64,000 bases of DNA, from NCBI GenBank assembly GCA_964385675.1, contig CAYLSF010000001.1, positions 53,651 through 117,650 of the forward strand, read 5' to 3'. Within the stretch, counting starts at the first letter, position 1; every line of letters starts with the position of its first letter. The translations under genes and the position numbers were made by a program. The stretch is from an uncultured Saprospiraceae bacterium (GTDB taxonomy: Bacteria > Bacteroidota > Bacteroidia > Chitinophagales > Saprospiraceae). Of this stretch, positions 12,068-57,870 are shown in pieces. The notes under the pieces were generated by a model. The model did not search any database. It was not told the origin of the DNA and saw nothing but the letters and a program-made list of their open reading frames with translations.

Positions 12068-12083
12068 ATTAAACCTCTATTAG

Positions 12084-35498: not shown

Positions 35499-35530
35499 TA
35501 TTTTTATCCTTATGTTTGTGTATAAGAAGT

Positions 35531-39339: not shown

Positions 39340-40144
39340 AGGCTATACCTTCTTCGCCTCTGTATGAGTAATAAATAAACTTTTTATTATCTGTGTTTAA
39401 GATAAACGGATCTCTTATCTCTGTGTTCCCAATCCTGGCCCCCGGTCTACTAGGTTCACATCTTAATGCTACTTCAAATCCTTCAGGCTTCATAAAAATA
39501 CTACTTTTTTCGGGTGAATCTATATTGTTAAATTTTATAGATCTAATATGCTCTGGACAATCACCTATTCTTGTATAATACACTGTATCAGTTTTACTGT
39601 CATAGCATGCATGTCTCATATTTGGTAAGACATGTTTTTTTGATTTTCCAAAAAAATCACACAACATCCCCCCGATATTTTCATTCTTGTATAGAAGACA
39701 TGGTGAGCCTATTGATCTTGAGATATATCTAGCATAAAATTGAACTTGGGGAAACTCATAGTGATGTTCAAACTTACGCAAATCTTTTGTAATGTAGCAT
39801 CTGGTTTCCTGTCTACCTTTAGTCACGCCGTGTATCAGTACTGAAATGTCATTTGTTCCTACTATAACATCAGGACTAGCTACATGATCTTTTAATTCTG
39901 GTAATGTATCAACCTTTAATATTGTGTTTTGCGAAACTCGCCATCCATAATGAGGTTCATTTGAATAAGCGACCCTAATAGAGTCTCCTCTATGATGGGC
40001 AAAAAGCATAATATATCTACTGCGCCCAGGTAAAAAATTAGGTCTTTCAAAAACGCATGGACCGTTAATATTAGATGAGTCTATATTTTTTGGTATGCTA
40101 TTTGGCGTGATAACTGGCCCGTGTCTTTTAATGGTTGATGACAT
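39323..40144 (-). CDS. Hypothetical protein in glycosylation operon
   Basis: 273 aa. GPVITP..YIMLFAHH..IRVAYS is faintly reminiscent of beta-propeller glycoside hydrolases or phosphorylases. Confidence 0.4.
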   Translation of the reverse strand: MSSTIKRHGPVITPNSIPKNIDSSNINGPCVFERPNFLPGRSRYIMLFAHHRGDSIRVAYSNEPHYGWRVSQNTILKVDTLPELKDHVASPDVIVGTNDISVLIHGVTKGRQETRCYITKDLRKFEHHYEFPQVQFYARYISRSIGSPCLLYKNENIGGMLCDFFGKSKKHVLPNMRHACYDSKTDTVYYTRIGDCPEHIRSIKFNNIDSPEKSSIFMKPEGFEVALRCEPSRPGARIGNTEIRDPFILNTDNKKFIYYSYRGEEGIACAEII

Positions 40145-42009: not shown

Positions 42010-42857
42010 ATAAGCTGTGCTATTTCTTCAATTGTGTATTGATCTACTTCATTACTAAAAGTTTTACCATCCATTGTTTCATGCATATTTTCTTCTGAGC
42101 TTAAATTGTTTATTATTACTGTGGGCTCAATATGCTCTTTTCTATATTTTTCAATTAATGCTTTGTTTAGATTGCCTAAGCTCATAGCTTTCATTTGTGG
42201 TACAATCGGCTTTGCATTCGTACCATTTTCAATAGCATTAAAAATTAAATCTATCGCTTCGTTAACAGGCCAAAAAAATCTAGTTGCATTAGGATTGTTC
42301 AAGATTAAAGGTTTGTTTCTCCTGATGCATTCTCTCCATTTGCAAAGAACAGATCCTGTGCTATATAAGACATTTCCATATCTTACAACTCGATACTTAG
42401 TATCTTGATTTATACTTTCATATTCTTGGAATAGTTTTTCCATTAGGTATTTACTAGATCCGTACACACCTTTAAGTTGCGCTGCCTTATCTGTAGAGAT
42501 TCCTACTACTAATTCACATTTATTTGATTTACTAGTTTCCAGTATGTTGATTGTGCCATTAATATTTGTTTGTATACATTGATAGGGATTAGACTCTGCT
42601 ATTCCTACATGCTTCATAGCCGCTAAATGAAATACTATATCTATATTTTGCATAGCCTTCTGAACGTAATAATAGTCTGCAATATCTCCTGGCAGTATAT
42701 TTATACTAGGAAATTGTTCTTTTAAGCTAACAAGATTTCCTTCATTTCTGGCTAGCACTGTTATTTTGTTATTATCGACTAATCTTTCGATTAAAGGCTT
42801 TCCTAAAAATCCTGATCCGCCAGTTATAAGTATATTTTTATTTTTAATTTGCATCAA
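42006..42857 (-). CDS. NAD(P)-dependent nucleotide-sugar 4,6-dehydratase/epimerase (CapD/PseB-like)
   Basis: Rossmann ILITGGSGFLG, the STDKA signature (ISTDKAAQ) and YGSSK (YxxxK). Confidence 0.75.
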   Translation of the reverse strand: MMQIKNKNILITGGSGFLGKPLIERLVDNNKITVLARNEGNLVSLKEQFPSINILPGDIADYYYVQKAMQNIDIVFHLAAMKHVGIAESNPYQCIQTNINGTINILETSKSNKCELVVGISTDKAAQLKGVYGSSKYLMEKLFQEYESINQDTKYRVVRYGNVLYSTGSVLCKWRECIRRNKPLILNNPNATRFFWPVNEAIDLIFNAIENGTNAKPIVPQMKAMSLGNLNKALIEKYRKEHIEPTVIINNLSSEENMHETMDGKTFSNEVDQYTIEEIAQLI

Positions 42858-43821
42858 AAACGTCTTTCCATCCTAGGGGCTTATAATTTGGATCAAATAA
42901 ATGTTGTAAATTTTTGTTTGAGTACTCGTTTGCTATTTTATACCATTGATGGCACGCTCTGAGTTTGCCTAAATCTGTTTTATCTTTGACTAACTCTTCA
43001 CCTAAAATATCTGATCTTTTATCAGGGTGTTTTCTATTATGAACTAGTAATAAATCTTTAAATAAATATTGATTTAAATTATGATGCCTACAAAGCATCA
43101 TAAATCCTGTGTCTTCTGACACAAAAAAGGCATAGTCTTTAGGCACATTAAGGCCGTTTTTGATTACGTCTGATGATATTACTAGGCCACAACCATTAAA
43201 CTGTGGAGTGTTCATCTTATAATAGGAATATTGATAATCTTTATTCCATTCTTCCATTTCGTCATACGACATTTTATACCGAAGGCTCCAGTAGTTTTTG
43301 GTATCGCCCTCTATAAATGGTTTTCCTTGGAATTTTGAGAATGTTAAAACATCCCAAGATTTGTCCCACATAACAGCGCCTCCCCAAAACGCAATAAAAT
43401 TGGGGTCTATATCATATTTTTCATGATAAAGTTTTGCAATAGATATAAATGTTTGACTGGGGACAACCATGTCTGTCTCCCCCCACATCAATACATCGGA
43501 TAGCTCAGAATATTTTTGGTTAAAATCGTACCTATAGTCTGCTACTGTATAGATATCGTCTATATTTACTCTGTAATTTACATCAAGACTGTAGTTTAAA
43601 ACGTATTGATGCATCAAACTTAGAAGTTTTGTCGATATTTCTCCTGGGCTTTTAGAACATTTTTCTAAGTCTTGATTCATATTGAAGACAAAATCAATTA
43701 TGACTTTCCCATCATAATTATTTATTGCCTTAGATAAGGATGATACATACTCTTCAAAAATGTTATGTTCGTACCACTGAACTAAACATCCAATAGCAAT
43801 CGTGGGAAATTTATTTTGCAT
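42844..43821 (-). CDS. Putative GT-A-fold glycosyltransferase
   Basis: N-terminal beta-strand TIAIGCLVQWYE and the acidic motif WGETDMVVP. Confidence 0.4.
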   Translation of the reverse strand: MQNKFPTIAIGCLVQWYEHNIFEEYVSSLSKAINNYDGKVIIDFVFNMNQDLEKCSKSPGEISTKLLSLMHQYVLNYSLDVNYRVNIDDIYTVADYRYDFNQKYSELSDVLMWGETDMVVPSQTFISIAKLYHEKYDIDPNFIAFWGGAVMWDKSWDVLTFSKFQGKPFIEGDTKNYWSLRYKMSYDEMEEWNKDYQYSYYKMNTPQFNGCGLVISSDVIKNGLNVPKDYAFFVSEDTGFMMLCRHHNLNQYLFKDLLLVHNRKHPDKRSDILGEELVKDKTDLGKLRACHQWYKIANEYSNKNLQHLFDPNYKPLGWKDVFDAN

Positions 43822-44542
43822 AATGTTGATATAATTTTTCCATCCAATATTTTGGAGAAGGTTTTACTCCACAGTTAAAATGAAATATATCTCCCATATC
43901 TGACCAAAACAAATCCTCGTCATTCAGACAGTTTCTACGTGGAAGATCCTGTATATTATAGATATATGGCAATCTATTTACTGTGATGTTTCTATGTTTT
44001 AGAAATAAATTAAAGATGGTCTGATCTTGTCCCATCCCCAGTTTATCCGTTAAGTTATAAATTTTATCTTTATTATTACGGACGAATTGTAAAAAATCTT
44101 GGAGAGTTGGACTGATAATTTTATCAACTATTATTAGACCAGTATTGAAATAGTTGTGGTAGTCTAGTGAAATACTTTTAAAAATATTGTGGGCCAAAGA
44201 GCAGTTTTCTATAGTCCTGCATACCCATTCTAAGGAGCCGAAATTTGGCACAGCTGATATAGTTTTATTTTGGCATATAACTTGTTCTAAATCTGAGTTT
44301 GGTCTTATAATAGTATCAGCATCTACTACACACAAAGTTTTATACTTTTTAAATAGAGATTCTAGATCGTATTTTAGAAATTGTGGTCTCAAATCATTAT
44401 TTTTGGTAATTCTTATATAGTCTAGCGCTGGTTTATCTTTAACATAATTCTCAAAAGACTTTGTGTGTATTTCATACCCCTGCAGCACGCTTCTTTCTGA
44501 TTCTATCTGCACACTGACTATTGCATTTTTAGCTTCTTTCAC
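43811..44542 (-). CDS. Glycosyltransferase family 8-like
   Basis: VVDADTII (DxD), FNTGLIIVD and GQDQTIFN, the GT8 motif order. Confidence 0.6.
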   Translation of the reverse strand: MKEAKNAIVSVQIESERSVLQGYEIHTKSFENYVKDKPALDYIRITKNNDLRPQFLKYDLESLFKKYKTLCVVDADTIIRPNSDLEQVICQNKTISAVPNFGSLEWVCRTIENCSLAHNIFKSISLDYHNYFNTGLIIVDKIISPTLQDFLQFVRNNKDKIYNLTDKLGMGQDQTIFNLFLKHRNITVNRLPYIYNIQDLPRRNCLNDEDLFWSDMGDIFHFNCGVKPSPKYWMEKLYQHYAK

Positions 44543-45290
44543 TATAGACGCCCCATATTTGTTTCATGATAGATTCTCTTTGATCTACCGGCATACCGGT
44601 GAAGTGCCAAATTTTTCCAGTTTTTAGAAAATACGGTTCTTGCGAACCTTGTTGAAAATTAGCTTGATTCAACCCTAAAGAAAAAATTCCAAACTGATTA
44701 TACATATGAGGCATATATAGTAATTTTATTTGATGTTTTTGCAAGATAAAATTGATCGGAGTTTGGTCTATTCCAGTATTTGGCGTGTCCCATTGGTCTA
44801 GGTCTTTTTTATTGTTGAGATAAAATTCAAAAAGTAAGTTGCATAAAGAGCTACCCGACTTTCGGTCCATTAATAATATACCAGAATTGACATAATTTTT
44901 ATACTGTAAATTGATATCTGGGAAAAACTTTTGGTATGCTTTTACAGAGTTGTTGAGCCAAGCTAAATTGTTGTGATCTTCAACGCCATAAATACCTTGA
45001 TGTGTAAACGTTTCAAAAATGTTTTCACATCGCCAAGATGGCATTGTATCAGAGTCAACGAGCAAAATTCGATCGCAATTATTGCTGACATAATTCCAAA
45101 TCTGAGATTTCATCCATTTAGGATGATTGATTTTAGGATTATTGATATTGTCTATCAGAATAAAGTCTAAATTATATTTTTTGCAATATTGTTTCCAAGA
45201 TCTTTCAGCATATAGACCCCATGTTGAATGTTGATATTTTGATTTGTCGCTATCTATACAAATCATCACAACGGCATTATTCGATTCCAT
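44529..45290 (-). CDS. Glycosyltransferase family 8-like (paralog of 43811..44542)
   Basis: LVDSDTMP, VNSGILLMD and GIDQTPIN. Confidence 0.6.
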   Translation of the reverse strand: MESNNAVVMICIDSDKSKYQHSTWGLYAERSWKQYCKKYNLDFILIDNINNPKINHPKWMKSQIWNYVSNNCDRILLVDSDTMPSWRCENIFETFTHQGIYGVEDHNNLAWLNNSVKAYQKFFPDINLQYKNYVNSGILLMDRKSGSSLCNLLFEFYLNNKKDLDQWDTPNTGIDQTPINFILQKHQIKLLYMPHMYNQFGIFSLGLNQANFQQGSQEPYFLKTGKIWHFTGMPVDQRESIMKQIWGVYSERS

Positions 45291-46128
45291 CTTCTATAAA
45301 TTTTCTGTTGTCACTTATAATATTGTTAACTTGCCAATATAATTTATCTGGCACATTTTGAAATGCGCCTAACCAGAGATTGTTTTTGTGCATTTTCTCA
45401 TAAGATTCTTCATCTCTAATGTGTTGCCCGTATTTTCCTATATTTTGAACTACAGATACCGCTGGAAACAGGGTCTTTTTACCTTTTGAAAAGTATTTGT
45501 GGAATGGCCATACGAAAGACCCAGGGCCTTTATCGATTCTGTTAATCTCGTTTAGCCAATCTTCTCCCTTGCAAGCATAAGTACGACCTTTTGGAGTAAT
45601 ATAATCTACTCCAAACATACCTATTTTATTAATCTCTTTATATGTTTCTTTAGTCATACCAAAGCCGCCAGTTCCATCAAACCATTCTTTGGCAACTAAA
45701 CCTGTAGTATTGTTGTATGTTTCATAATGACCTGGGTGACATGGCCTATGAAATGTACATGCTGCAAATAGATTATTGTCGTTAAGTCTAGGTAATACTT
45801 GTTGAAAGTAATCAAGAGTATATTTAGATGGCAATGTATCATCTTCTAGATGAATAGCATAGTCATACCCCTTGCTAAAAGTATAGTCTAAGCAGAATTT
45901 AGTGTTAACAAAGCACCCGTGTGTATGGCTATGTCCTAATATATCATAAAATTTAAGCCCGCTGAGTTTTGCTGCTTCTAAATTTTGTTGTTGTATAATA
46001 GTTTCGGCGCCGTCGCACACCAATACTATATCATAGTTGTCTACATTATTACACTTTTTAAGGGCCTTTAATACCTTTAGCAAATAGATAGGCCTTTTAT
46101 ATGCTTTTATAGTGATCAAAGCTTTCAT
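45277..46128 (-). CDS. Putative GT-A-fold glycosyltransferase (EDD motif)
   Basis: ALITIKAYKRP..L..L.. N-terminal strand and IHLEDDTLPS. Confidence 0.45.
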   Translation of the reverse strand: MKALITIKAYKRPIYLLKVLKALKKCNNVDNYDIVLVCDGAETIIQQQNLEAAKLSGLKFYDILGHSHTHGCFVNTKFCLDYTFSKGYDYAIHLEDDTLPSKYTLDYFQQVLPRLNDNNLFAACTFHRPCHPGHYETYNNTTGLVAKEWFDGTGGFGMTKETYKEINKIGMFGVDYITPKGRTYACKGEDWLNEINRIDKGPGSFVWPFHKYFSKGKKTLFPAVSVVQNIGKYGQHIRDEESYEKMHKNNLWLGAFQNVPDKLYWQVNNIISDNRKFIEDGIE

Positions 46129-46781
46129 TTGGTAGCCTCTATTTCTTTTTCTAAGGCGTCTATAGCATCTTGCTGCCGAGAGTCAAAATATCCCTTGGCT
46201 CTAAAATTTCCGGTCCAGTTTTCTTTTAGATGTAGTATTTGATATTTATCGGGGTTTAATATCCCGGCTCTAAATCCATTTGGAACTTCATGACACCCAG
46301 GAGACGCATTCAAATATGGCGAAGTATTTACAAATCTAGTATCATCATTAAGAAAACACATATGATAGTTATCTGGATGTACAAAATGTCTATTAAATAG
46401 ATTGTATCTTAGAACACCGGCATATGAACCCTCTGGATTTACTACATCATATTCCCAGTCAAATGTTTTTAGATGGTCAGCCGTATGAGGCATTAAGAGT
46501 TCATCAGCATCAATAAACATTCTACATTTTGTCTCACACCTATCTAAAATTTGGTTTTTAGCCCCGGCAAAATCATTGTTAAGATTCAAATTAAAGCTAA
46601 AAAACTGAGATTTTTGTATTAAACTAAGTAACTTTGTATATAGATTGTGTGCTTTTGGGCCATCTTCATCTATTCCAACGCAGATTCTAGATGCTATACC
46701 ATCATGGTTTTCACACCAGCCTTTGATAAATTTTTCGTCCGAAGGACTTAGAAGCAAGCATATTGTAAGGTCTTTATTCAT
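46125..46781 (-). CDS. Putative GT2-like glycosyltransferase
   Basis: LTICLLLSP N-terminal strand and FIDADELL (DxD). Confidence 0.45.
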   Translation of the reverse strand: MNKDLTICLLLSPSDEKFIKGWCENHDGIASRICVGIDEDGPKAHNLYTKLLSLIQKSQFFSFNLNLNNDFAGAKNQILDRCETKCRMFIDADELLMPHTADHLKTFDWEYDVVNPEGSYAGVLRYNLFNRHFVHPDNYHMCFLNDDTRFVNTSPYLNASPGCHEVPNGFRAGILNPDKYQILHLKENWTGNFRAKGYFDSRQQDAIDALEKEIEATK

Positions 46782-47176
46782 AAAAACATTTTGGTTAGAA
46801 TTATATCTTTAATAGCTGCTTGAGCGCTTATAATTATACTTTGACGTTGAACATTAGAAACATAAAGCATGCTCGATACTCTACAGTATTTAAGATATTT
46901 TCTATTTTTATGTATTCGGAAATCTCTTATTAGAGTATACAGTGTAGAGTTTGTCTTAAAGCATTTTTCTATTAGTTTGTTATATAATAAAACAATATCT
47001 AAGTCGCATTTCAAAAAAATAGCTATTTGATGCTTTGAGAAAGCTAATGGAGGTACGCTTTCTATAGTTTCGTAAACTGTGTTTGATATTGTTTTAGTTT
47101 TTATAAGGCCGTGCGGTGGACATCCTACGTAATGATATCCACCATTAGACCAAAAAATCTTGCCAGATTGATTCAT
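46778..47176 (-). CDS. Hypothetical protein in glycosylation operon
   Basis: I prefer the ATG at 47176 (ATGA overlap with the upstream stop) to the track start at 47203. Confidence 0.45.
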   Translation of the reverse strand: MNQSGKIFWSNGGYHYVGCPPHGLIKTKTISNTVYETIESVPPLAFSKHQIAIFLKCDLDIVLLYNKLIEKCFKTNSTLYTLIRDFRIHKNRKYLKYCRVSSMLYVSNVQRQSIIISAQAAIKDIILTKMFL

Positions 47177-47706
47177 AGTTTTTGTTGATCCAAAAATTTC
47201 CATCTGTTCAATCTCGGCTCTATTCCCATATTAACATTAATAATGTATCTTTCAACTTCATCCCAAGAGCCAAAAAACATTTCGTGTTTTAGCATTCCCC
47301 ATAGAAAATTAGGAACGCCTTCTTTGCCTTGTTCACAGCAAATAATAACAGGCTTTCTTTGCATAGCTGCATGTGCTATTTCAATAATAGAACCGCACAT
47401 AAAAATATCGTGGTTGATATATGCAACTACAAAGCTAGATAAGTCCACAGCTCTTAGGTCTCTTTGTACAACTTCTTTACCTATTCTTGTAGCCTTATCC
47501 CAGTCTGCCGCTTCTTTTGCAATATTAATTTTAGAAACAGCTACACTATCGTCTTCATTAGAAAAAGCAGAATCTGTTGGATCTATTACAGATATGCCTT
47601 CATTTCTTAAGAAAGGGGCTAGATTTTTTCTCCAAGTCTTTCCATCATCTTTGGCCTGATCAATAGGCCCAGCTAAGTAACAAATATGATTTGATAAAAG
47701 TCCCAA
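47173..47706 (-). CDS. Nucleoside 2-deoxyribosyltransferase-like protein
   Basis: ICYLAGPID..W N-terminus and GSIIEIAHAAMQRKPVI resemble the NDT/Rcl-family pattern. Confidence 0.5.
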   Translation of the reverse strand: MGLLSNHICYLAGPIDQAKDDGKTWRKNLAPFLRNEGISVIDPTDSAFSNEDDSVAVSKINIAKEAADWDKATRIGKEVVQRDLRAVDLSSFVVAYINHDIFMCGSIIEIAHAAMQRKPVIICCEQGKEGVPNFLWGMLKHEMFFGSWDEVERYIINVNMGIEPRLNRWKFLDQQKL

Positions 47707-48261: not shown

Positions 48262-48465
48262 TTACAGTGTATTTTCTTCTTCTTTATAGTTATCAATAGC
48301 ATTTACTAATGCATCTTCAAAAGATTTCCCAATCATTTGCCTCGGAGTACGAAGTACAAAAGTGTTTTTATCGCTCGGATTTTTAGGACTTATAATCAAG
48401 GCGTATTTCTTTAGTACCTTGATAAGGTCTTCTGTCAAGTCGACATTAAAATCTTGGGTCTCCAT
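48262..48465 (-). CDS. Hypothetical protein
   Basis: 67-aa ORF overlapping the pnkp stop by 20 nt. Confidence 0.45.
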   Translation of the reverse strand: METQDFNVDLTEDLIKVLKKYALIISPKNPSDKNTFVLRTPRQMIGKSFEDALVNAIDNYKEEENTL

Positions 48466-50899
48466 TAGTCCCTCTTTGTTTGACCTGTAAAAATTTGCCT
48501 AGATTTTCGACAGATGGATCTTCTAAGATATCTTTAGCTAGTTTAAATTGAGCAATAGAATCTGACAATTTATATCTAATCTTTTTTCTTGACATTAGCT
48601 TGTCGAGTTTAGCCGGATTAGTATAATCAGGACCATATACTATTCTTAAATATTCTGGATTTCGTACTTTTATGTAGGGCGCTATATCTAAATTATAAAC
48701 CTTATCAGGCTTGACCACGCACCCTTCTATTTTATTAGATTTTAAAAAGGCCTGGAAATCTGATAATAGCTCTTCAGAAATATTATTTAAGTCTAATAAT
48801 ATTGACTTAGATTTATTAATTTTACTAAACATGTCGCTATTTGACTCATTCCAATAGGTCTTGGTAGACCCATCAGTATAAACATCTTTGAGTATAGCGA
48901 ACGGCTCTATTCTAGCCGGCTCATCCGATCCATAAATATCTACCTGTTTTTTGAAAAGTTCTAGATAGGCATTTTGTGATTCTACACTTATATAGTTCTT
49001 GTGTATATTTTTAATACCTTTGGACAAGCTATATTTGTGATGTCCATATTTTTCAATATATTCTGTTTTTGTTAGGTTGTCAAAATCTTTATTTGTAGAA
49101 ATAGATTCTTCAAGCTTATTGAGTACTTTATCTAGATTTCCTTCGGCTCTTAATCTTGAATGTTCTGAGGCTGCATGATAGTATCCGTAAAAAGACTTAT
49201 CTATTAGCCCTTCTCCGAGCAATCTCCATGGAAGGGCCTCGCAATCTAAAATCGTAAATAAGCCACCCTGACTAAAGAAGTCTTGTCTTTCTTCAATTAG
49301 TCTGGCATATTCTTCTTTTAATATTTCATTAAGCTCTTCTTTAAATCTATATCCATTTTTTGTTACTCCATAACACTTCTCGGGATCTGAATATAGATAA
49401 ATTTGCGCTCGCGAGCCCATAAACTTTGGCTGTAAGCACACTTGTTCTATTCCATTCTTCCTATAATAATTAAAGGCCCAATCTAGACTTTCTAGTTCTG
49501 TGTCGGTTTTATCAGCGGGACACATAGTAGGAGATAAATAGCAAATATTTTGCTTTGCCATTCTTGAGGCTAGCTTAAGATTATCTTCGTCTATTTGAAT
49601 ATCTCTAGTAAAAGATAAGGTCTGAAGCCTATCGTCACAATATGCGTTCTTTGAATTAACTTTCAGGAAGTGATGCCGGCCTTTATCAAAATATACTGCG
49701 GTTAGACAGTTACCATATACCGCGCCAGTGTCTATACCTATATTTGAACTGTTAACAAAAGCTCTTTGCAACGCTATATGACCCCAAATATGTTTCTTAT
49801 GAGATTTATTTTTTTCTCTATCAACAAACCACAACTTGTCTTCTAAAGTTTCTTTTTCTTCTAAACGATATCTATAATTTCTTTGATTTCTTAGAGCTTC
49901 TCCAGAGTTCTTTTTTAGAAACTTTGTTTGGCAAGGACTGTGAGTAATAATAGCTTCTTTTGTTTCAACCCAATGGTAAGACAGTTTTAATAGATCTAAA
50001 AATTTTTTTTGTAGCTCTGGGCTCTCAGCTAAAAATACAGCGTCATTAAAATATTTATTGAGAATGTCTTGAGGGACTTGAGTATCTTTTTTAGTCCAAA
50101 AAACTTCTGCAAAATGATCGTGATTACCTCGTACTAGTCTAATTAAGTCTAGATTTTCTTTAATAAGATTGATTGTTTTTTCAGCTGAGTCTTTTTCTTT
50201 GTTCTTATCAAAGATGTCTCCTATTAAAATAATATCTTGAAATTTCTTTGCTCTAAGCTGATTAAGCATTTCTTCTAATTCTCTATAGCAGCCATGTATA
50301 TCTCCAACTACTGCATATTTTGAATTATTGTCTAGCCTTAAACCATTCTTAGGTTCTTCTTCTCTTATTATCTCATGAGAGATTTCGGCATGAGACTTAA
50401 TATTATATACTTGTGCAAAATTTTTGTAAGAGTTTATACTCTTAAGGGTCGTTTCCTTAAATTTTCTAACATGATTCTTAATAATAAAATTATTTCTATC
50501 GCTATAGTAATCTTTTGTGTTCTTGTAATTAAAGGTAACAAAGCACAAATTGTAATGATGCTTTTTAGCTAATGTGGTTATTTTTTCATGGAAGGAAGGA
50601 CTGAGAGCAGTGCTGTCTACAACAACTATGTCTTGATTAGCTGGGTAACTGATAACTGATTCTAGTTCAGTCCAGAGCATATTAAAAGCTTGATCTGATA
50701 CTGCAAAAAGTTCTGAATCATGCTTGTCTAAATCCGATCCTATTATCATCCGCCTCAGATTATCGGAGGATATATAGTGAACTGTTTCAAATAGTCCCGA
50801 CGCAATCGGTAAGAAATTATTCTCGCACCAATAGCTTTTTCCACAATTACTTGGGCCAACTGTAACTACAATAGTATTCTTTTTAATTTTTAATGACAT
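48446..50899 (-). CDS. pnkp: Polynucleotide kinase-phosphatase-ligase (bacterial Pnkp-type RNA repair enzyme)
   Basis: Three modules in Pnkp order. The P-loop kinase has GPSNCGKS. The metallophosphatase has VVGDIHGC, GDIFDK and RGNHD. The adenylyltransferase/ligase has LQPKFMGSRAQIY, similar to the KxMGSR lysine motif. 817 aa. Confidence 0.8.
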   Translation of the reverse strand: MSLKIKKNTIVVTVGPSNCGKSYWCENNFLPIASGLFETVHYISSDNLRRMIIGSDLDKHDSELFAVSDQAFNMLWTELESVISYPANQDIVVVDSTALSPSFHEKITTLAKKHHYNLCFVTFNYKNTKDYYSDRNNFIIKNHVRKFKETTLKSINSYKNFAQVYNIKSHAEISHEIIREEEPKNGLRLDNNSKYAVVGDIHGCYRELEEMLNQLRAKKFQDIILIGDIFDKNKEKDSAEKTINLIKENLDLIRLVRGNHDHFAEVFWTKKDTQVPQDILNKYFNDAVFLAESPELQKKFLDLLKLSYHWVETKEAIITHSPCQTKFLKKNSGEALRNQRNYRYRLEEKETLEDKLWFVDREKNKSHKKHIWGHIALQRAFVNSSNIGIDTGAVYGNCLTAVYFDKGRHHFLKVNSKNAYCDDRLQTLSFTRDIQIDEDNLKLASRMAKQNICYLSPTMCPADKTDTELESLDWAFNYYRKNGIEQVCLQPKFMGSRAQIYLYSDPEKCYGVTKNGYRFKEELNEILKEEYARLIEERQDFFSQGGLFTILDCEALPWRLLGEGLIDKSFYGYYHAASEHSRLRAEGNLDKVLNKLEESISTNKDFDNLTKTEYIEKYGHHKYSLSKGIKNIHKNYISVESQNAYLELFKKQVDIYGSDEPARIEPFAILKDVYTDGSTKTYWNESNSDMFSKINKSKSILLDLNNISEELLSDFQAFLKSNKIEGCVVKPDKVYNLDIAPYIKVRNPEYLRIVYGPDYTNPAKLDKLMSRKKIRYKLSDSIAQFKLAKDILEDPSVENLGKFLQVKQRGTNGDPRF

Positions 50900-50944
50900 C
50901 TATAAACTCGTTTGTTTGTATTTTTTTTAGATTTTCTGATATAT

Positions 50945-51211
50945 TTATTGTTGCAAAAATTGTAGTTTTTCTATAATAGAATTTTTCAACCCCAACTCAT
51001 TAAATAGCGGTATATATCTAGTAATGATGCTTTCTGTATTAAAACCTGCCTGTTCTCTACCGGATAGAATACCGCAAATTTCATAGCGTACAGCTTTAAG
51101 AGTGTTATAGATTAATATTGCATATGCCACATGTTTAGTCTCTAAAAAATATTTAGATATTGTTAATACAAACGCCCCATGTTGTAGGTATGTTATTAAC
51201 TGTATCGCCAA
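50945..51211 (-). CDS. Hypothetical protein (doubtful start)
   Basis: 88-aa ORF between hen1 and pnkp with a 59-nt overlap onto the hen1 3' end. Confidence 0.3.
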   Translation of the reverse strand: MAIQLITYLQHGAFVLTISKYFLETKHVAYAILIYNTLKAVRYEICGILSGREQAGFNTESIITRYIPLFNELGLKNSIIEKLQFLQQ

Positions 51212-52379
51212 TACCTGTTATTGATATTTCTTTATTTTGGCCAAAAATATTTATTATCTGATTAGATAGTTGCTTTAGCGTAAATTCAAACTTATGATCT
51301 TCGTGTCTTAGCTCTATTCCATAGAATGGATTAAATTCTTTGTTTGGCGTAGTAATCAATATTTGGGAGGGTTTTAAACTAAGTAGCCCCTTAAAAATCT
51401 CGGCATGCTTGTCGAGTTCTATATGTTCAATTACTTCAGACATAATGATCGTACAGCCATTTACTGTCTGTTTATCTATTTCGTCAATTGAACTTACTAC
51501 ACTTGCGTTATCTATGCCGTTGTTTTCGATTTTTTTAGAACATTTAATTTGGCAGTCTGGATCTATATCAACACAAATATAATTTTTATGATTCTTTGCT
51601 AGGCGTGTAAGGTATCTGCCCTCGCCAGAGCCAAAATCTATGATAGTGCTATCTTCTGGAATTAAGGAGTTAATGTAGTCGAATCTTGATTCCCAATTAT
51701 TTTTGGGCGACATGTTTAGTTCATATTTCTCACTATTATTGATAAGCTCTTGATATTCGTAGAACTTTTTTTCGCTGTTTCTTAATAGGTTTTGTTTGAA
51801 TAGATACCTGATGAAATATGGCGCGTCAATATCAGATATTAATTGGAAGTATTTTTTGTTTATATTGTCGTCTTTGTATATAGCATCTTGATCTAACGCC
51901 ATATAGAAAGCTACTACCTGAACAAACTTTAAGAAATATTCCAGAGTATGTTTATACGAGCGAATTTTAATACATCTGTAATTAGTCCAATTTTCTGAAG
52001 GGTAATCTTGAATAATAAATTCATGGAAATATTTTTTAATACTTTGGAATGTAGAGTCTCGAACATTAACGTTACTAATTTCCAGTGAGATATCACTAAT
52101 ATCATCATATTTTGTATTTAGACCATCCAACATACCGTCTATCATTTTGTTTATAATAAATGGGTTGTTAAATTTGTTAACGTCTAAATACTCAAAATCT
52201 GAGCCTCCAAATGAACTTTCATCATGACCTTCCATAAATGAAATGTAATATGTTTGTGGGTCTGTAAACCAACCAATCAAATTACCTTTCCTACAGTCTA
52301 TAATACGTGGTCCGCTATCGGGGTTCTTGTTTATAATATAGGAAAAATCTAAATTGTCATTTTTGAGTTTGATGATCAT
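51153..52379 (-). CDS. hen1: Hen1-type RNA 3'-terminal 2'-O-methyltransferase
   Basis: SAM motif IIDFGSGEGRY, then MSEVIEHIE and LRHEDHKFEFT (Hen1 metal/RNA-binding motifs). The N-terminal domain of about 230 aa sits where the Pnkp-ligase-activating domain is expected. Confidence 0.8.
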   Translation of the reverse strand: MIIKLKNDNLDFSYIINKNPDSGPRIIDCRKGNLIGWFTDPQTYYISFMEGHDESSFGGSDFEYLDVNKFNNPFIINKMIDGMLDGLNTKYDDISDISLEISNVNVRDSTFQSIKKYFHEFIIQDYPSENWTNYRCIKIRSYKHTLEYFLKFVQVVAFYMALDQDAIYKDDNINKKYFQLISDIDAPYFIRYLFKQNLLRNSEKKFYEYQELINNSEKYELNMSPKNNWESRFDYINSLIPEDSTIIDFGSGEGRYLTRLAKNHKNYICVDIDPDCQIKCSKKIENNGIDNASVVSSIDEIDKQTVNGCTIIMSEVIEHIELDKHAEIFKGLLSLKPSQILITTPNKEFNPFYGIELRHEDHKFEFTLKQLSNQIINIFGQNKEISITGIGDTVNNIPTTWGVCINNI

Positions 52380-52968
52380 GTTTATTCCAGCTTATTTTAT
52401 GTTTGATGTCGTGCTTTAATTTTGACAGGTCTTCTTTTGGAAATTGATATCCCTGCATCATATATTTTAGTATTCTTTTTTTTGTTTTGTCAGTAGCATA
52501 TTTCCAGTTAACCTTGGTCTGTAGACCTACTATTTCTGATATTATACGTGAGTCTGCCTCTATATGCATTTTTTTTACTGGTAGTATTGCTTTACAGCAT
52601 TCAATATCAAATAAGTTTACACTTACCACACCTTGAAATATTTGTAGTTTTTTCCTGATATTTTTATATTTCAACTTAACATCTATATTAATCTCATAAT
52701 ATGGGCGGTGGTACTTTACTGATTTTTCATTAAGGACCGCAATAGAGTTGAAGATCTTTGCTATTTGATTTACTATTTTAGTATATGCCATATCATTATG
52801 ACATATAAAAATATCTATATCGCCTGCGCCCTCTTGTCTATGTATTGCTCTTTGTATCGAGCCTCCAGTTATAAATATACTATCAAGGTATGTTGGTATT
52901 ATATTGTGGAGTATTTTATCAGAAACATATTTAAGAATCGTATTATTTGGGATTAAATAAGTACACAT
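52357..52968 (-). CDS. Pol-beta-superfamily nucleotidyltransferase
   Basis: FITGGSIQRAIHRQEGAGDIDIFI fits the hG[GS]x9-13Dh[DE]h motif. Confidence 0.45.
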   Translation of the reverse strand: MCTYLIPNNTILKYVSDKILHNIIPTYLDSIFITGGSIQRAIHRQEGAGDIDIFICHNDMAYTKIVNQIAKIFNSIAVLNEKSVKYHRPYYEINIDVKLKYKNIRKKLQIFQGVVSVNLFDIECCKAILPVKKMHIEADSRIISEIVGLQTKVNWKYATDKTKKRILKYMMQGYQFPKEDLSKLKHDIKHKISWNKHDHQTQK

Positions 52969-54227
52969 TAAACATCCTCATAACCATCAAAATCACTAAG
53001 GCTAAATACTTTAGATTCATCTGGTATATAATCTTCTGAAGCTCGTCCAGAAAGGAACCAAAACCAATTCTTAGGTTGTTGCGGACTTACTGCATTCCCT
53101 ATCCCATCTGTTATGACAAATACTAGATTTGGATACTCTTTTTGCTTGGTGTGAACTTGTATATATTCTTCTATAATGTCAAATGCAGTTCCCCCTCCAC
53201 CGTAAAATTTTCCTGTTTTTAAATCTACACTTTCAACTTCTGTGTTAAAAGTATGAAACTTAATGTTAAATGTATCGGTTGGAATGCTCCGCGCCGCGTC
53301 GATAAATCTTTGACAATAATTAACACATGATCCAGAAACATCGGCAAAAAGCCACAAGTCCCATTTATTTTTACCTTTATGATCACATCTATTAATAGTT
53401 GGAAGTAAAAACTTTTTGTCTATTAGGGATGCTCTTCTGTCTGGCTTATGCCATTGATAAGTTCTACTTTTATCTTTAGCTATCAAATTTCTACGAATTT
53501 GCCCAACTACAGATTCCCATCTTTTGTTTTGTGGCTGCTTTTTATAAATTATATTGAGAATATCTTTTATATTTTCTGTGCCAGCAGACAATTCTTGGAC
53601 AATCTTTTCTGCTTGTTCTTTATCATTGATAGCTTCTGAGATAACTTCTTTAAGTTCTTCTTCAGTTAATGATGGTAAAGAGGAATGGTCGTCTAAAGAC
53701 CCTCCATTGGGTGTTGCAGTAAGGTCTATGACAGTTTGTTTTTCTGCCCTATCTAGCAACTCTTTAAAGTAATACTCAAAAATATCATCGTCGTTAATCT
53801 TTTGATGATCATCTTTAAAAGCGATGTCTTTGAATACTGGAGACATATCTCCTAGTTCAGACATGTCTTCTCTAGAAAATCCAAAATTGTCTATAAGAGA
53901 ATGATTAACAACAATATCTAACGCGATATTTGCTATTTTTCTATTTAGACGATTATCTTTGATGCGTTCTCCGTGATTGAAAAGCAGGTGGAGCATCTCG
54001 TGACAGCAAACAAATTTGACTTGATCCCAGGTTAGTTTTTCTAAGAAGTCTGTGTTAAACAAAAACCGTAGGAATTTTCCCTCTCTGTCAAAAGTAACGC
54101 ACGCTGTTTTTATTTTATCTGATACTCCGGGCCTGCCTATTGCGCCTAGCTTATAAAACATCTCGTGATATTCACACATATCTTTGATTATCAAATCATA
54201 ACAATCTAGAAGATCTTGTGGCTTCAT
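52968..54227 (-). CDS. VWA-domain protein with N-terminal HExxH metallopeptidase-like domain (DUF2201-type, MoxR partner)
   Basis: CCHEMLHLLFNH (HExxH). C-terminal VWA-like LWLFADVSGS (MIDAS DxSxS) and VFVITDG. Confidence 0.65.
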   Translation of the reverse strand: MKPQDLLDCYDLIIKDMCEYHEMFYKLGAIGRPGVSDKIKTACVTFDREGKFLRFLFNTDFLEKLTWDQVKFVCCHEMLHLLFNHGERIKDNRLNRKIANIALDIVVNHSLIDNFGFSREDMSELGDMSPVFKDIAFKDDHQKINDDDIFEYYFKELLDRAEKQTVIDLTATPNGGSLDDHSSLPSLTEEELKEVISEAINDKEQAEKIVQELSAGTENIKDILNIIYKKQPQNKRWESVVGQIRRNLIAKDKSRTYQWHKPDRRASLIDKKFLLPTINRCDHKGKNKWDLWLFADVSGSCVNYCQRFIDAARSIPTDTFNIKFHTFNTEVESVDLKTGKFYGGGGTAFDIIEEYIQVHTKQKEYPNLVFVITDGIGNAVSPQQPKNWFWFLSGRASEDYIPDESKVFSLSDFDGYEDV

Positions 54228-54238: not shown

Positions 54239-55324
54239 TTATATTTGTTTAATTTCAGACATGCTAATGTATGATTCAATCGCCTCTAGTATACTTGATG
54301 ATTGTGCGTATTCTAGAAACTCTTTATTGTTCTCGCTTCCAACAGCAATAATATTTGCAATAATATCGTACATTTTTTGTCCATTGCCAACCTCAACAGA
54401 CTCAGAAATAATTGATGTAAGTAAATCTCTATGCTTTACTTTTACTATTTCGGCAGCAATTTTTTCTTTAGGCCAATAATGTATATACTTTTCAGTATTT
54501 TGTTGGCTTAGCACGTAATCTTTTGTCGCGCTAAAATTATTCTCATCCTTAAAGAATTTAGTAATCTTTTCGTGATCTTCACCACACTCCTTAAGTTTTT
54601 CGAGTACTGGTCCATCTTTTAGAGCTGCCTTTAAGCTATTAAGTTCAACTCCTTGCGGGAGAAAAGGTTCTAGTCTCATTTTTTTATTAAGGAAGCCATC
54701 CATAGCATAATCAAGCGTGCGAGGAGAGACCTTTTTAATCAAATCAGGCCTATTAATCTTAAGTTCGTTCCACCAAGATATAGCGCCGGCCGCTGCATTT
54801 TGCCCATACTTATTACTAAAGTAATTTCTATCTGGCTGATATGGCATATTTAGTCGAACGTGAAACCTGCTTTCCTGAGCTAAGTCTAGCCTATCAGTAT
54901 CATAATCATCATTATAAGGGTTGATAGCCACCCAAATAACTTTTAAGTTATCGTACTTAATGCCATTAAGCGATTTAAACTGAATAAGTTCCATCACTGC
55001 ATTTCTGACATGAGTGTCTCCGCGATTAAACTCATCCATAAAGATCGCCTCTATTTTATCTTCGGCAAATCTTTTTGGTCTTACGAGGTCAAGATATTTT
55101 GTTCCGGTGTTCTCGTCTACAGTTTCTTTTGGGCAACCTATAAAATCAATAAATGGGTCCATTGTAGGAGCGCTAAAATAAGCCCAGCTATCTTCTCCAT
55201 ACTTTTCAGTAAATAGCTTGGAAACTATATGAGTCTTACCAACGCCATGTTCGCCCTCTATGATAACATTGAGTTCATTATCTAGAGCTTCCTTGAGATC
55301 CTGAATCATTACTTTATTAGACAT
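54239..55324 (-). CDS. AAA+ ATPase, MoxR/CobS-like
   Basis: Walker A IIEGEHGVGKTH, Walker B IFMDEFNR, 361 aa. Adjacent to a VWA protein. Confidence 0.7.
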   Translation of the reverse strand: MSNKVMIQDLKEALDNELNVIIEGEHGVGKTHIVSKLFTEKYGEDSWAYFSAPTMDPFIDFIGCPKETVDENTGTKYLDLVRPKRFAEDKIEAIFMDEFNRGDTHVRNAVMELIQFKSLNGIKYDNLKVIWVAINPYNDDYDTDRLDLAQESRFHVRLNMPYQPDRNYFSNKYGQNAAAGAISWWNELKINRPDLIKKVSPRTLDYAMDGFLNKKMRLEPFLPQGVELNSLKAALKDGPVLEKLKECGEDHEKITKFFKDENNFSATKDYVLSQQNTEKYIHYWPKEKIAAEIVKVKHRDLLTSIISESVEVGNGQKMYDIIANIIAVGSENNKEFLEYAQSSSILEAIESYISMSEIKQI

Positions 55325-55833: not shown

Positions 55834-57870
55834 TCAATTTACATTCTCTTGAAAGAGCCAAAGAATTTGATCTTTTGATAATTGTTTTTTGACGCTAACA
55901 TACGAGCTAAGTATACTCATAGGCATATTATTTTTTGTTAGGTTAATTATTTTATCTATCAATTTAATAGACTGTTCTTTTATTAGTTTTTGTTGCCCAT
56001 CCGATAAAAAACCTGACCAGAATCTATAATCTTCCAGATTAAGATAGTTTTTGTAACGAAAGCTCGTTCGTCTATATTGAAATGCTTGGTCTATGCTTTG
56101 AATTTCGGCGGCGGTAAAAAGTTTGACCTTAATACTATCTTCTAAGCGTCCCCAGATTGCATAAAAATTAATATAGTTTTTATCTTGTAGCTGACTAAGA
56201 CTTTCTATCAAGTAGATATTTTTGCAATATCTTAGTTTTTCATCAGGAATACCTTTATTTTTGATAAAGTCTTTTAAGGGCTTCATATTCTGAGAAATCG
56301 CCCAGTTTATCTTATCTGGTTTGACTCCAAATAAATTGTATTTCCCAAAATCTATGAAGTCTTTGTACCTATCCATATGGATATTTATATCAACTTCTGG
56401 CTTGTATCTTTTTATTGGAACATATAAGTCGGACTTGCCATTATTAGTAGTATAATTAACAGCCTCCCAGAATCTAGAATATTGATTTACATTGACCCCG
56501 CCTTTGTCAGGCCTGAACTTAAAGATTTTAATATGTCCATATGTCCCTCTTTTTTTGCCGGTAGATTTAACGTAGTAATCGCTTGCACGAATAATCTCAT
56601 GGTCTTTTAAGCCTGTCAACTTTTGGAGTTCATCAATATTCCCTGAAAATAATAGTCCATGAATTTGATTTGTCTTGTTCAGGTAGCTTCTGGCTGCTTT
56701 GACATATCCAGTCTTAATATCTACATATATAATAGGAAGTTTGTTACTTATGTCATTTCCAGAAAGAAAATCTGTGTCATTTCCTCTTTTAGCAAAAAAT
56801 CTATCAACTGAAGATAAAGTCCCCGCACTCTTTATATCAATTCCATTTGAATTAATTTTTGAGCCTTTATATTCTGAGAAAATTACAGGCTTGTTAGAGC
56901 TTCTAGAGAGCTTATGCAAGAATCCAATCGCTTCATATGGCGTGGCAAAGCTGTTTACTTTTTTCGCTGTATCCTTTTCTATTTCTTGATATACTTCTTT
57001 TAATTTAGCGGAAACTTTTGCAGAATTTTGCGGTGTGTCTTGTAACGCTTCTCGGCTTATTGTAATGCCAACATATCCTATAGGCACTTTTATAATAAGA
57101 TTATCAAATGTTGTTTTTATATTTGTCTTGTAAAGAATATTCCCCATCAAAACTTGGGCATTGCGTCTTTGAAACGAATTTGTTTCTAGACCTTTATGTA
57201 GTAAAAAGTTATCTCCAGAGAAATAAGATAGATTTTTATGAGTTTTGATGTTTTTAACTTGGTCAGTATTGTAATTTGGCTGCACATCAAACCATTGGTA
57301 TATAATTGCAGCTTTTTTGATAAACTCTTTGTGGTCTTTAGTCTCTACGGGAAACTTTACTTCTAGCCCATTTTTCTCTGTTGTATCTTGTTCCGAGATT
57401 ATTTGTAGGTATGGTACATGATATTCATCTCTAGCGCACAAAGCAGAGATAGCTCTGCCGTTAAAATACGAGGTTACAATAAACTGATTTGTATACGCAA
57501 ATGGGCTCTTGGAGCCGATGCCGATTGATCCAATATGCTCATTAGAATCTCTTCTATTACTTTTAGCGTAGCGAGTATAAGTTTGTGTTAAGTCTTCTTT
57601 TGACAGGCCAGTACCATAATCTCTAATGCGAAAATCTGCGTTGCTACCTATGGGCAAGTCTATATCAAATGGCACATCTTGATTATTGGCATCTATATGG
57701 GCATCATAAGCATTCGTGGCCAATTCTCTAAGGATAGCAGAAATTGGATCTTCATATACATCATCTGACAGCCTTTTCATAATGGCTGGGTCGGTTTCTA
57801 CTTGAAACTCAAATCTTTCATCTGCTTTTAGCTCGTTTTTATGATATTGCCTATTAAATGAGGGCTTCAT
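55834..57870 (-). CDS. rIIA: rIIA-like GHKL-ATPase protein
   Basis: RELATNAYDAH, RDYGTGLS and IGSIGIGSKSPFAYTNQFIVTSY match the Bergerat-fold N-terminus of T4 rIIA as I recall it. 678 aa. Confidence 0.65.
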   Translation of the reverse strand: MKPSFNRQYHKNELKADERFEFQVETDPAIMKRLSDDVYEDPISAILRELATNAYDAHIDANNQDVPFDIDLPIGSNADFRIRDYGTGLSKEDLTQTYTRYAKSNRRDSNEHIGSIGIGSKSPFAYTNQFIVTSYFNGRAISALCARDEYHVPYLQIISEQDTTEKNGLEVKFPVETKDHKEFIKKAAIIYQWFDVQPNYNTDQVKNIKTHKNLSYFSGDNFLLHKGLETNSFQRRNAQVLMGNILYKTNIKTTFDNLIIKVPIGYVGITISREALQDTPQNSAKVSAKLKEVYQEIEKDTAKKVNSFATPYEAIGFLHKLSRSSNKPVIFSEYKGSKINSNGIDIKSAGTLSSVDRFFAKRGNDTDFLSGNDISNKLPIIYVDIKTGYVKAARSYLNKTNQIHGLLFSGNIDELQKLTGLKDHEIIRASDYYVKSTGKKRGTYGHIKIFKFRPDKGGVNVNQYSRFWEAVNYTTNNGKSDLYVPIKRYKPEVDINIHMDRYKDFIDFGKYNLFGVKPDKINWAISQNMKPLKDFIKNKGIPDEKLRYCKNIYLIESLSQLQDKNYINFYAIWGRLEDSIKVKLFTAAEIQSIDQAFQYRRTSFRYKNYLNLEDYRFWSGFLSDGQQKLIKEQSIKLIDKIINLTKNNMPMSILSSYVSVKKQLSKDQILWLFQENVN

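Follow-up and report, generated by a model that had tools for sequence, protein, structure and literature searches.

Why would a T4-like phage encode Hen1 and Pnkp, two proteins of an RNA-repair system that was characterized in bacteria, and is the small nucleotidyltransferase (NTase) that is encoded directly upstream a part of the same pathway? The question is raised by a 64-kb stretch of contig CAYLSF010000001.1 (the window, to which all coordinates refer), in which the genes for the NTase, Hen1, and Pnkp follow one another on the minus strand. In our reading, to which we assign a probability of roughly 70%, the phage carries a complete and intact Hen1-Pnkp pair for the repair of ribonuclease-cut tRNA, and a Gad2-type NTase has been added in this lineage. 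The open reading frames (ORFs) in question are given below with their lengths in amino acids (aa); the loci with which they were compared carry the labels L001-L140.

52357..52968, minus strand: NTase, 203 aa (ORF list)
51153..52379, minus strand: hen1, 408 aa (ORF list)
50945..51211, minus strand: doubtful small ORF, 88 aa (ORF list)
48446..50899, minus strand: pnkp, 817 aa (ORF list)

The ORF list confirms the positions and the common strand that the initial annotation had given for these genes, and every motif that it had quoted for Pnkp, Hen1, and the NTase was located. The overlap of 23 nucleotides (nt) that it had described is also present, that is, the 3′ end of the NTase gene extends over the start of hen1 (52357..52379); hen1 and pnkp, which are co-oriented, are separated by a spacer of 253 nt.

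The genes had been described as phage-borne, and this too was confirmed: rIIA and replication and metabolism genes are located in the window (those for a UvsX-like recombinase, DnaB helicase, primase, ribonucleotide reductase (RNR), PhoH, and NAMPT), and proteins identical to those of the cassette are encoded on a metagenomic scaffold of 142,144 bp. The window is part of a large T4-like phage of ~142 kb. Using megablast with 14 kb around the cassette, no relative at the DNA level was found among isolated phages; the DnaB of the window is only ~30% identical to those of Bacillus phages and is uninformative on the host.

Catalytic modules of Pnkp and Hen1

The 817-aa protein had been annotated as a kinase-phosphatase-ligase Pnkp; for each of the three modules, the Pfam matches, the PDB matches, and the comparison of an AlphaFold2 model with the PDB (using Foldseek) agree with this assignment, at a level far above that of chance. 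Pfam identifies AAA_33 (aa 11-124; expectation value (E) 1e-6), Metallophos (aa 194-378; E 1e-14), and PNKP_ligase (aa 446-793; E 4e-32). The modules and motifs of Pnkp and the catalytic domain of Hen1 are as follows (Cth, Clostridium thermocellum; Cgi, Capnocytophaga gingivalis; SAM, S-adenosylmethionine).

Pnkp, ~aa 1-185: kinase module, 5′-OH polynucleotide kinase
Pnkp, ~aa 190-430: phosphoesterase module, calcineurin/lambda-type 2′,3′-phosphoesterase
Pnkp, ~aa 445-800: ligase module, ATP-dependent Rnl-type RNA ligase with an insertion module
50834..50857, minus strand: kinase P-loop GPSNCGKS (aa 15-22), aligned on GSSGSGKS of Cth
50750..50770, minus strand: kinase motif SSDNLRR with the catalytic Asp46 and Arg49, equivalent to D38 and R41 of C. 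thermocellum Pnk
49778..50305, minus strand: phosphoesterase metal motifs GDIHGC (aa 199-204), GDIFDK (aa 227-232), GNHD (aa 258-261), H320, and GH (aa 373-374)
48623..49426, minus strand: ligase motifs I KFMGSR (aa 492-497), III LDCEALPW, IV EGCVVKP, and V KVRNPEYLRIVYGPDY, aligned to Cgi Rnl and the Cth Pnkp ligase
Hen1, ~aa 240-405: C-terminal metal-dependent SAM 2′-O-methyltransferase domain

The set of metal ligands in the phosphoesterase module is complete in an alignment with the phosphatase of Cth Pnkp and lambda phosphatase, and Lys492 in motif I of the ligase module is the predicted acceptor of AMP. In 12 homologs that share 27-39% identity, the residues expected to participate in catalysis are invariant; these include the P-loop, D46, and R49 in the kinase module, D200, H202, D228, N259, H260, H320, and H374 in the phosphatase module, and K492, E554, E725, K730, and K744 in the ligase module. 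When the PDB was searched by sequence, the matches were Rnl (4xru_B; E 2e-38), the Cth phosphatase (4j6o), and the Cth kinase (4gp6). The AlphaFold2 model of Pnkp, which was computed from the alignment of the 12 homologs, has a mean predicted local distance difference test (pLDDT) score of 86.8; in the PDB, its ligase module matches the Rnl of 4XRU/4XRP (template modeling (TM) score 0.79-0.80) and also 4drf, its phosphatase module matches Cth 4J6O (TM 0.68), and its kinase module matches Cth 4GP6/4MDE (TM 0.83). T4 Pnkp matches the model weakly (TM 0.15/0.37).

The initial annotation was also correct in placing a real hen1 next to, and in the same orientation as, the gene encoding the three-module Pnkp. 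Pfam matches Hen1_N at aa 2-217 (E 3e-37) and, in addition, families of SAM-dependent methyltransferases; the SAM motif IIDFGSGEG (aa 246-254) and the metal/RNA motifs EVIEH (aa 315-319) and RHEDHKFE (aa 358-365) are present and align to the solved structures of Hen1. The closest match in the PDB is 4xrp_C (E 3e-25), the Hen1 of the Pnkp1-Rnl-Hen1 complex. In the characterized systems, Hen1's N-terminal domain serves to activate the ligase (PMC4411300). As judged from these alignments, the catalytic residues and motifs for all four of the predicted repair activities (kinase, phosphatase, ligase, and methyltransferase) are intact.

The closest relative of the window is L014, with 38% identity for Pnkp, 49% for the von Willebrand factor A (vWA) protein encoded upstream of the cassette (vide infra), and 40% for a 170-aa protein encoded downstream. 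The Hen1 of this locus (L014:705-1889) retains the N-terminal ligase-activating domain (31% identity); in the alignment, however, VIELACKDD is found in place of IIDFGSGEG, and both EVIEH and RHxDH are gone. The L014 protein may, therefore, be reduced to an activator of the ligase, with repair proceeding without methylation. Our census of the Hen1 motifs used a regular expression that is too strict for variant SAM motifs, so the loss in L014 is the only one that is reliable.

Position among the characterized repair systems

Against the NCBIfam equivalog models, Pnkp scores 190.4 bits (TIGR04075; cut-off 750) and Hen1 scores 66 bits (TIGR04074; cut-off 340); both are far below, and the assignment of function is based on homology at the level of domains and on the conservation of the catalytic residues. 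The homologs from Paenibacillus (L060) and from L016 also score below the cut-offs (179-188 bits for Pnkp, 73-74 bits for Hen1), and the Paenibacillus homolog is likewise Rnl-like. Because the homologs in Bacillota share both properties with those in phages, we consider these proteins to be a third subfamily that is common to Bacillota and phages; the Paenibacillus representative is so far below the cut-offs that such genes in Bacillota may be under-annotated. By its sequence, then, the Hen1-Pnkp pair is assigned to a distinct subfamily in which the classical kinase-phosphatase-ligase fusion is combined with an Rnl-type ligase and Hen1.

The initial annotation had identified the pair with the classical heterotetramer of bacterial Pnkp and Hen1. 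With respect to architecture this is correct: the domain architectures of both Pnkp and Hen1 are those of the classical system (Cth/Ava), the genes are adjacent in both, and for the kinase and phosphatase modules the closest structures are those of Cth (4gp6 and 4j6o). However, among solved structures, the ligase module and Hen1 are most closely related to components of a different complex, the Pnkp1-Rnl-Hen1 heterohexamer from Capnocytophaga gingivalis (PDB 4XRP/4XRU; PMC4411300). The Pnkp-C of Cth/Ava fits the ligase module less well (62 bits; TM 0.55-0.64) than does Cgi Rnl (135 bits; TM 0.79-0.80), and canonical bacterial Pnkps share ~23-26% identity with the Pnkp in the window; also, the classical pair is bacterial, whereas the pair in the window is phage-borne.

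The system from Capnocytophaga shares the logic of repair with methylation, and it mends ribotoxin-cleaved tRNA only when all of its components are present (PMC4411300). It differs in its organization: its ligase is a stand-alone protein and its end-healing is performed by a T4-Pnkp-like kinase and HAD phosphatase, whereas the ligase in the window is fused and the phosphatase is of the calcineurin type; in the search of PDB sequences, the Pnkp1 chain of the Capnocytophaga complex had no match in the window Pnkp. The Capnocytophaga hen1 is unlinked to the other two genes (PMC4411300), in contrast to the adjacent hen1 and pnkp in the window. A putative Pnkp1-Rnl-Hen1 system has also been reported in the archaeal Borg elements.

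In a rough neighbor-joining (NJ) tree without support values, the subfamily is located on a long branch apart from the canonical Pnkps; the Bacillota form a single clade that is nested among deep phage/metagenomic branches, and the window and L014 form a basal pair, so that the window lineage is not nested within the bacteria.

Occurrence of hen1-pnkp in phages and bacteria

A search of IMG/VR with the single Pnkp sequence as the query found nothing; when an alignment of the clade was used as the query, 29 viral contigs (27-530 kb) were identified, with 26 of them matched over nearly the full length of Pnkp. In 27 of the 29, hen1 is located within 6 kb of pnkp, mostly directly upstream; a similar arrangement is found in four further phage-like metagenomic contigs. 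Five isolated phages also encode Hen1 beside a Pnkp/Rnl-type ligase (Vibrio phages RYC and vB_VpaM_sm033, Xanthomonas phage XacN1, and Stenotrophomonas phages CM1 and RAS14); their Hen1 and ligase proteins share 26-32% identity with those in the window, and, unlike the fusion in the window, their architectures are split or rearranged. In RYC (L001:5073-8290), a stand-alone Rnl-type ligase is followed by a Hen1 that is fused to a T4-like kinase and HAD phosphatase; this protein is annotated only as ‘polynucleotide kinase’, although its P-loop and DLDGT motif are visible in the alignment. In XacN1 (L002:3084-6158; ORF197-199), a small kinase, Hen1 (annotated as ‘methyltransferase’), and the ligase (annotated as ‘metallophosphoesterase’) are separate proteins. 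In these two records, both of which were inspected, no Gad2-type NTase is annotated beside the hen1 and ligase genes.

The PNKP and Hen1 of XacN1 were pointed out in 2018 and interpreted as a tRNA repair system (PMC5852040); a survey of RNA repair in jumbo phages makes no mention of Hen1, and our literature search found no paper with biochemical or genetic work on Pnkp/Hen1 from a phage. The statement in the initial annotation that such a cassette is uncharacterized in phages is, therefore, correct in the biochemical sense; with respect to occurrence it is not, given the interpretation of the XacN1 pair, the five isolated phages, and the large majority of the IMG/VR contigs. There is precedent for hen1-pnkp in a phage, and the pair in the window is a divergent representative of a repair system that was already known.

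The clade is also not restricted to phages, a possibility that we considered and rejected, because a scan of cellular genomes identified 267 loci that carry the subfamily. In the 80 that were listed in detail (L060-L139), Bacillota predominate (Paenibacillus, Brevibacillus, Listeria, Enterococcus, and Bacillus), with Pnkps that share 31-33% identity with the window Pnkp over their full length; hen1 is directly upstream of pnkp in all 80. The conservation of this linkage across the bacterial, IMG/VR, and isolated-phage loci is an argument for joint action of the two proteins.

Proposed function of the Hen1-Pnkp pair

By analogy with the characterized homologs, the pair would act when a ribonuclease of the host or of a competitor cuts tRNA, leaving 2′,3′-cyclic-phosphate and 5′-OH ends. 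The phosphoesterase module of Pnkp would strip the cyclic phosphate, the C-terminal methyltransferase of Hen1 would 2′-O-methylate the 3′-terminal nucleoside, and the kinase module of Pnkp would phosphorylate the 5′-OH; the N-terminal domain of Hen1 would then license the ligase module, and the nick would be sealed via Lys492-AMP. We infer this order (dephosphorylate, methylate, phosphorylate, and seal) from the characterized homologs. The methylated junction would be expected to resist renewed cleavage by transesterifying ribotoxins.

The logic that we propose is like that of T4 Pnkp and Rnl1 in the response to PrrC, that is, the phage heals and seals tRNA that was cleaved by the host. The components are different: the HAD phosphatase and the Rnl1 ligase of T4 are unrelated to those in the window, and T4 has no methyltransferase, so its mended tRNA can be recut. 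Counter-defense against tRNA-cleaving nucleases had been suggested in the initial annotation and, by analogy with T4 Pnkp/Rnl1, it is supported as the most economical explanation; the phage Hen1-Pnkp pair would most likely counter anticodon nucleases and other tRNA-cleaving effectors of abortive infection.

To our knowledge, the ribotoxins that are the in vivo targets of Pnkp/Hen1 have not been identified so far. Occurrence in a phage ties the system to a defined conflict and could reveal the nucleases that are countered; it also provides a way to learn whether ‘repair plus methyl-immunization’ is superior to T4-style repair. The third subfamily, which is found in Bacillota as well as in large phages, bridges the two characterized systems, and our literature search found no biochemistry on any of its members.

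Family assignment of the NTase

The Pol-beta NTase signature that had been noted in the third gene is present: GGS (aa 35-37) and GDIDIF (aa 49-54) were located, together with FDIECC (aa 120-125) and RILKYMMQGYQF (aa 165-176). In an exhaustive phmmer search of 1.84 billion representatives, the matches were the NTase itself and a single homolog, P0025 (165 aa); a word-index search with the NTase returned only the query, and a profile of the two sequences (NTase and P0025) added none. A GGSIQRAIH...GDID.F block is invariant between the two proteins, which also have in common a subsequent FD..CC and R.LKY..QGY.F at the C-terminal end. The D50-x-D52 and GGS motifs are thus invariant in P0025, and D121, the candidate third carboxylate, is conserved across the Gad2 N-terminal-domain (Gad2-N) family. 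The predicted order of the secondary structure elements fits the core of the Pol-beta fold; the AlphaFold2 model, with a pLDDT of 43, has low confidence, and its Foldseek matches, on which we place no weight, have TM scores ≤ 0.44.

The relationship to Gad2 (PF26128), an anti-Gabija protein from Bacillus phage SPbetaL7, is detected by profiles. A precomputed match of the NTase to PF26128 exists and is flagged as weak. With a hidden Markov model (HMM) for Gad2-N that we built from ten phage homologs of Gad2, the NTase scores 26.6 bits over HMM positions 2-186 and P0025 scores ~26.5 bits; the maximum for 1000 shuffled sequences, used as the background, is 9.2 bits. The NTase matches phrog_4400 with E 0.0025 (bona fide Gad2 proteins match this PHROG with E values of 1e-27 to 1e-82) and phrog_12715, a ‘nucleotidyltransferase’, with E 1e-4; P0025 matches phrog_1614, also a ‘nucleotidyltransferase’ (E 3e-4), as do four of the five Gad2-family proteins that were scanned. 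In pairwise BLASTP comparisons, the match of the NTase to Gad2 is not significant. The NTase has no Pfam match, even at E ≤ 10, and no NCBIfam match; the former is explained by the Pfam copy that we used, which seemingly lacks PF26128, because a clear Gad2-type protein (L016:10712-11626; 82 bits with the HMM and E 8e-68 with phrog_4400) was also unmatched. From these profile matches, the 203-aa protein is assigned as a minimal, putatively Pol-beta-fold NTase of the Gad2 N-terminal-domain family.

Gad2 contains a homologous NTase domain with collinear motifs (hAGGxI, DxDIxF, KxQxIh, FDFxxC, and RxxKYxxxGY); however, Gad2 is a two-domain protein of 400 aa, whereas the NTase in the window (203 aa) consists of the N-terminal domain without the C-terminal half. 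Gad2 is a genetically validated anti-Gabija protein in which an NTase domain is predicted; according to a 2026 review, its mechanism is still unknown.

Two other assignments were tried and rejected. RlaP (PF10127; PMC12776372) is an NTase with the Pol-beta fold whose gene, in phages too, is located next to those of RNA-repair ligases. PF10127 does not match the NTase in the window, and its BLASTP comparison with the RlaP of L010 is not significant; the same Pfam library detects RlaP in L016 and L036. Any likeness in function between the NTase and RlaP is an analogy that we draw by inference only. A ‘CCA-like’ role had also been suggested for the NTase, and this suggestion is not upheld: neither Pfam nor NCBIfam gives a match to a CCA-adding enzyme or poly(A) polymerase (PF01743), the structural echoes of these enzymes have low TM scores and come from the low-confidence model, and the Gad2 family is found instead.

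Genome neighborhoods of Gad2-type NTases

No homolog of the 203-aa NTase was found in the other phage loci that we examined; a more distant Gad2-type NTase (the protein with 82 bits on the Gad2-N HMM) is encoded 2 kb from pnkp in L016 (IMGVR_UViG_3300045599_000040; 4722-14475). The order in this locus is hen1, pnkp, RlaP, a small ORF, HD, the Gad2-type NTase, a metallophosphoesterase, two ORFs, and, truncated by the end of the locus, a second RlaP-like ORF. In the rough NJ tree, its Pnkp is located inside the Bacillota clade, so the contig may be from a Bacillota phage or prophage. RlaP also adjoins hen1-pnkp in L036 and is nearby in L010. Thus, two families of Pol-beta NTases, RlaP and Gad2-type, recur beside hen1-pnkp in phages.

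Gad2-type NTases are also found near other RNA-related genes. In the jumbo Pectobacterium phage CBB (L059; CBB_77-87), the NTase is encoded between an HD gene and the genes for Rnl1 and a T4-type Pnkp, ~1.5 kb upstream of the former and ~3.3 kb upstream of the latter; in Salmonella phage PVP-SE1 (L058; genes 79/80), the homolog, which is seemingly split into two ORFs, directly follows an array of 24 tRNA genes. Elsewhere, Gad2-type NTases are located between a nuclease and SSB (Streptococcus phage SW22) and beside an exonuclease (Sulfitobacter phage). The associations of NTases with repair genes come from a handful of lineages and are not statistics; nevertheless, together with the third Pnkp/Hen1 subfamily, this recurrent association is the strongest new lead from the analysis.

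The AAA-vWA pair

Upstream of the cassette, the window contains the following genes.

52968..54227, minus strand: vWA gene, encoding a 419-aa protein with a DUF2201_N metallopeptidase-like domain and vWA (Pfam DUF2201_N)
54239..55324, minus strand: MoxR-like AAA ATPase, 361 aa (phrog_1297, ATPase; weak matches to AAA families in Pfam)
55834..57870: rIIA

These genes and the cassette form a tight, co-directional array: rIIA, a 171-aa ORF, the MoxR-like AAA, DUF2201/vWA, the NTase, hen1, the small ORF, and pnkp. Homologs of the vWA gene are found ahead of hen1-pnkp in L014, L017, and L040, and ahead of a Gad2-type NTase in L015 and Aeromonas phage 2L372D; for the latter, the order is AAA_5, DUF2201/vWA, a homing-endonuclease-like gene, a small ORF, and the Gad2-type NTase. 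The pair of AAA and vWA genes is conserved in L017, 2L372D, and the megaphage LR756511, where it occurs alone. The MoxR-like AAA is taken as the partner of the vWA protein, and the pair is possibly linked to the cassette. PHROG 1314 labels the vWA protein as an ‘HNH endonuclease’, seemingly a misannotation.

Does the NTase participate in RNA repair?

A number of observations weigh against the reading with which we began. The window contains a single tRNA gene (for tRNA-Gly (UCC), 35529..35601, minus strand, the only tRNA or Rfam match in the 64 kb) and no RNA-repair gene beyond the cassette, that is, no further homolog of RlaP, Rnl1, HD, or T4-type Pnkp; both Pnkp and Hen1 score far below the equivalog cut-offs, and the structure model of the NTase has low confidence. 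The others concern the neighbors of the NTase. In L014, the order is vWA, hen1, and pnkp, with no NTase between vWA and hen1, so the NTase is lineage-specific; also, no NTase is found within 3 kb of hen1-pnkp in the 80 listed bacterial operons. The only close homolog of the NTase, P0025 (L015), is encoded directly after a homolog of the vWA gene (47% identity), and in 2L372D the Gad2-type NTase is encoded downstream of an AAA-vWA pair, the 6-kb flanks that were examined being free of repair genes. Finally, Gad2, the sole member of the family that has been studied experimentally, counters a DNA-targeting system. The cassette had been described initially as a unit of three genes; from its absence in L014 and in 80/80 of the listed bacterial loci, together with the position of P0025 after a vWA gene, the NTase is not a conserved member of such a unit.

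These absences would be expected if the NTase were an independent anti-defense gene, directed against Gabija or another DNA-targeting system, with hen1-pnkp alone as the repair unit and the NTase simply its neighbor in a stretch with many counter-defense genes. This explanation, which we regard as plausible although short of an even chance, is favored by the membership of the NTase in the Gad2-N family, by the genetic validation of Gad2, with its predicted NTase domain, against Gabija, and by the location of relatives in replication/recombination modules (SW22 and the Sulfitobacter phage). However, the protein in the window corresponds to only the ~200-aa N-terminal domain of the 400-aa Gad2, and, because the mechanism of Gad2 is unknown, no substrate can be read from the name of the family; in addition, the NTase gene overlaps hen1 by 23 nt, and Gad2-type NTases recur in RNA-repair and tRNA neighborhoods (L016, CBB, and PVP-SE1). 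The NTase could instead be the third component of a module with the MoxR-like AAA and the DUF2201/vWA protein and not a partner of Hen1/Pnkp. The stop codon of the vWA gene overlaps the start codon of the NTase gene (TAATG), and both P0025 and the Gad2-type NTase of 2L372D are encoded downstream of vWA homologs, as is expected for such a module; we nevertheless consider it unlikely, given that the pair occurs without the NTase in L014, L017, L040, and LR756511 and that most of the Gad2-type NTases that we examined do not have an AAA-vWA pair nearby.

The function of the Hen1-Pnkp pair itself could also be different: instead of countering host defense, it might serve the RNA metabolism of the phage, provide protection from the ribotoxins of competitors, or heal DNA ends. 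The operons in Bacillota establish that the pair is retained outside of phages, and the healing modules of C. thermocellum Pnkp also act on DNA ends in vitro. However, large phages with additional phosphoesterases, RlaP, and HD (the L016 island is an example) are enriched for the pair, and T4, in which tRNA cleavage by PrrC is reversed, provides the sole established role of a kinase-phosphatase with an RNA ligase in a phage (PMC4411300); we judge a function other than counter-defense to be very unlikely. It is hardly credible that the cassette is what remains, decaying or inactive, of a bacterial operon that was acquired horizontally. Such an origin would explain the high divergence of the pair from the canonical models, and in its relative L014 all three of the methyltransferase motifs of Hen1 have been lost; however, the ORFs in the window are full length, their catalytic residues are intact and invariant in the clade, the AlphaFold2 model of Pnkp is confident, and the rough NJ tree places the window lineage on a deep branch among phage sequences instead of within bacteria.

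We therefore retain the reading of an intact Hen1-Pnkp pair with an added Gad2-type NTase. The position of the NTase gene, which overlaps both of its neighbors, suggests that it is co-expressed with both. As a tentative proposal, to which we would give roughly one chance in three, the NTase trims or extends damaged 3′ ends of RNA for Hen1-Pnkp, as RlaP does. The more general proposal that Gad2-type NTases are RNA-directed enzymes, acting on damaged 3′ ends of tRNA together with the RNA-repair ligases of phages, and thus a second RlaP-like family, is speculative and, in our judgment, quite unlikely. If it were true, the anti-Gabija activity of Gad2 could reflect a step at the level of RNA or tRNA (compare the related OLD nuclease of phage P2, which kills by cutting tRNA; PMC12445682), and the overlapping NTase-hen1-pnkp would be the most compact natural pathway to ‘restore nucleotide, methylate, seal’. 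The occurrence of these NTases beside hen1-pnkp, Rnl1/Pnkp, and tRNA arrays is, in any event, a testable lead on the mechanism of Gad2.

The spacer and other features of the window

The initial annotation had considered the 88-aa ORF in the hen1-pnkp spacer to be doubtful, and we agree. In the public scaffold, gene callers identify a 61-aa version with a GTG start (50945..51130); the 88-aa form would run into the 3′ end of hen1. Homologs of this ORF, in either form, were found only in near-identical contigs and in none of the other loci; it has no match in Pfam or PHROG and is unlike the analogous small ORF in L010. The 253-nt spacer itself has no RNA structure signal (z = −0.19) and no match in Rfam. 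In a scan for promoters and terminators, the interval of 47-58.5 kb was without a terminator on the minus strand, and promoter-like matches were about as numerous as expected from shuffled sequence.

A long series of genes in one orientation, with glycosyltransferase-like features, is located just downstream of the cassette at 37742..46781 (minus strand); a match to a glycosyltransferase PHROG is also found at 27985..29067, and the ORF at 47173..47706 has a faint Pfam match to families of nucleoside 2-deoxyribosyltransferases. The glycosyltransferase-like run and the deoxyribosyltransferase-like ORF may participate in the modification of DNA or of a surface. Finally, a 1116-aa ORF (14142..17492, minus strand) matches an RNR PHROG in two separate stretches, the better of which is aa 5-325; the break in the match could be an intein or other insertion.

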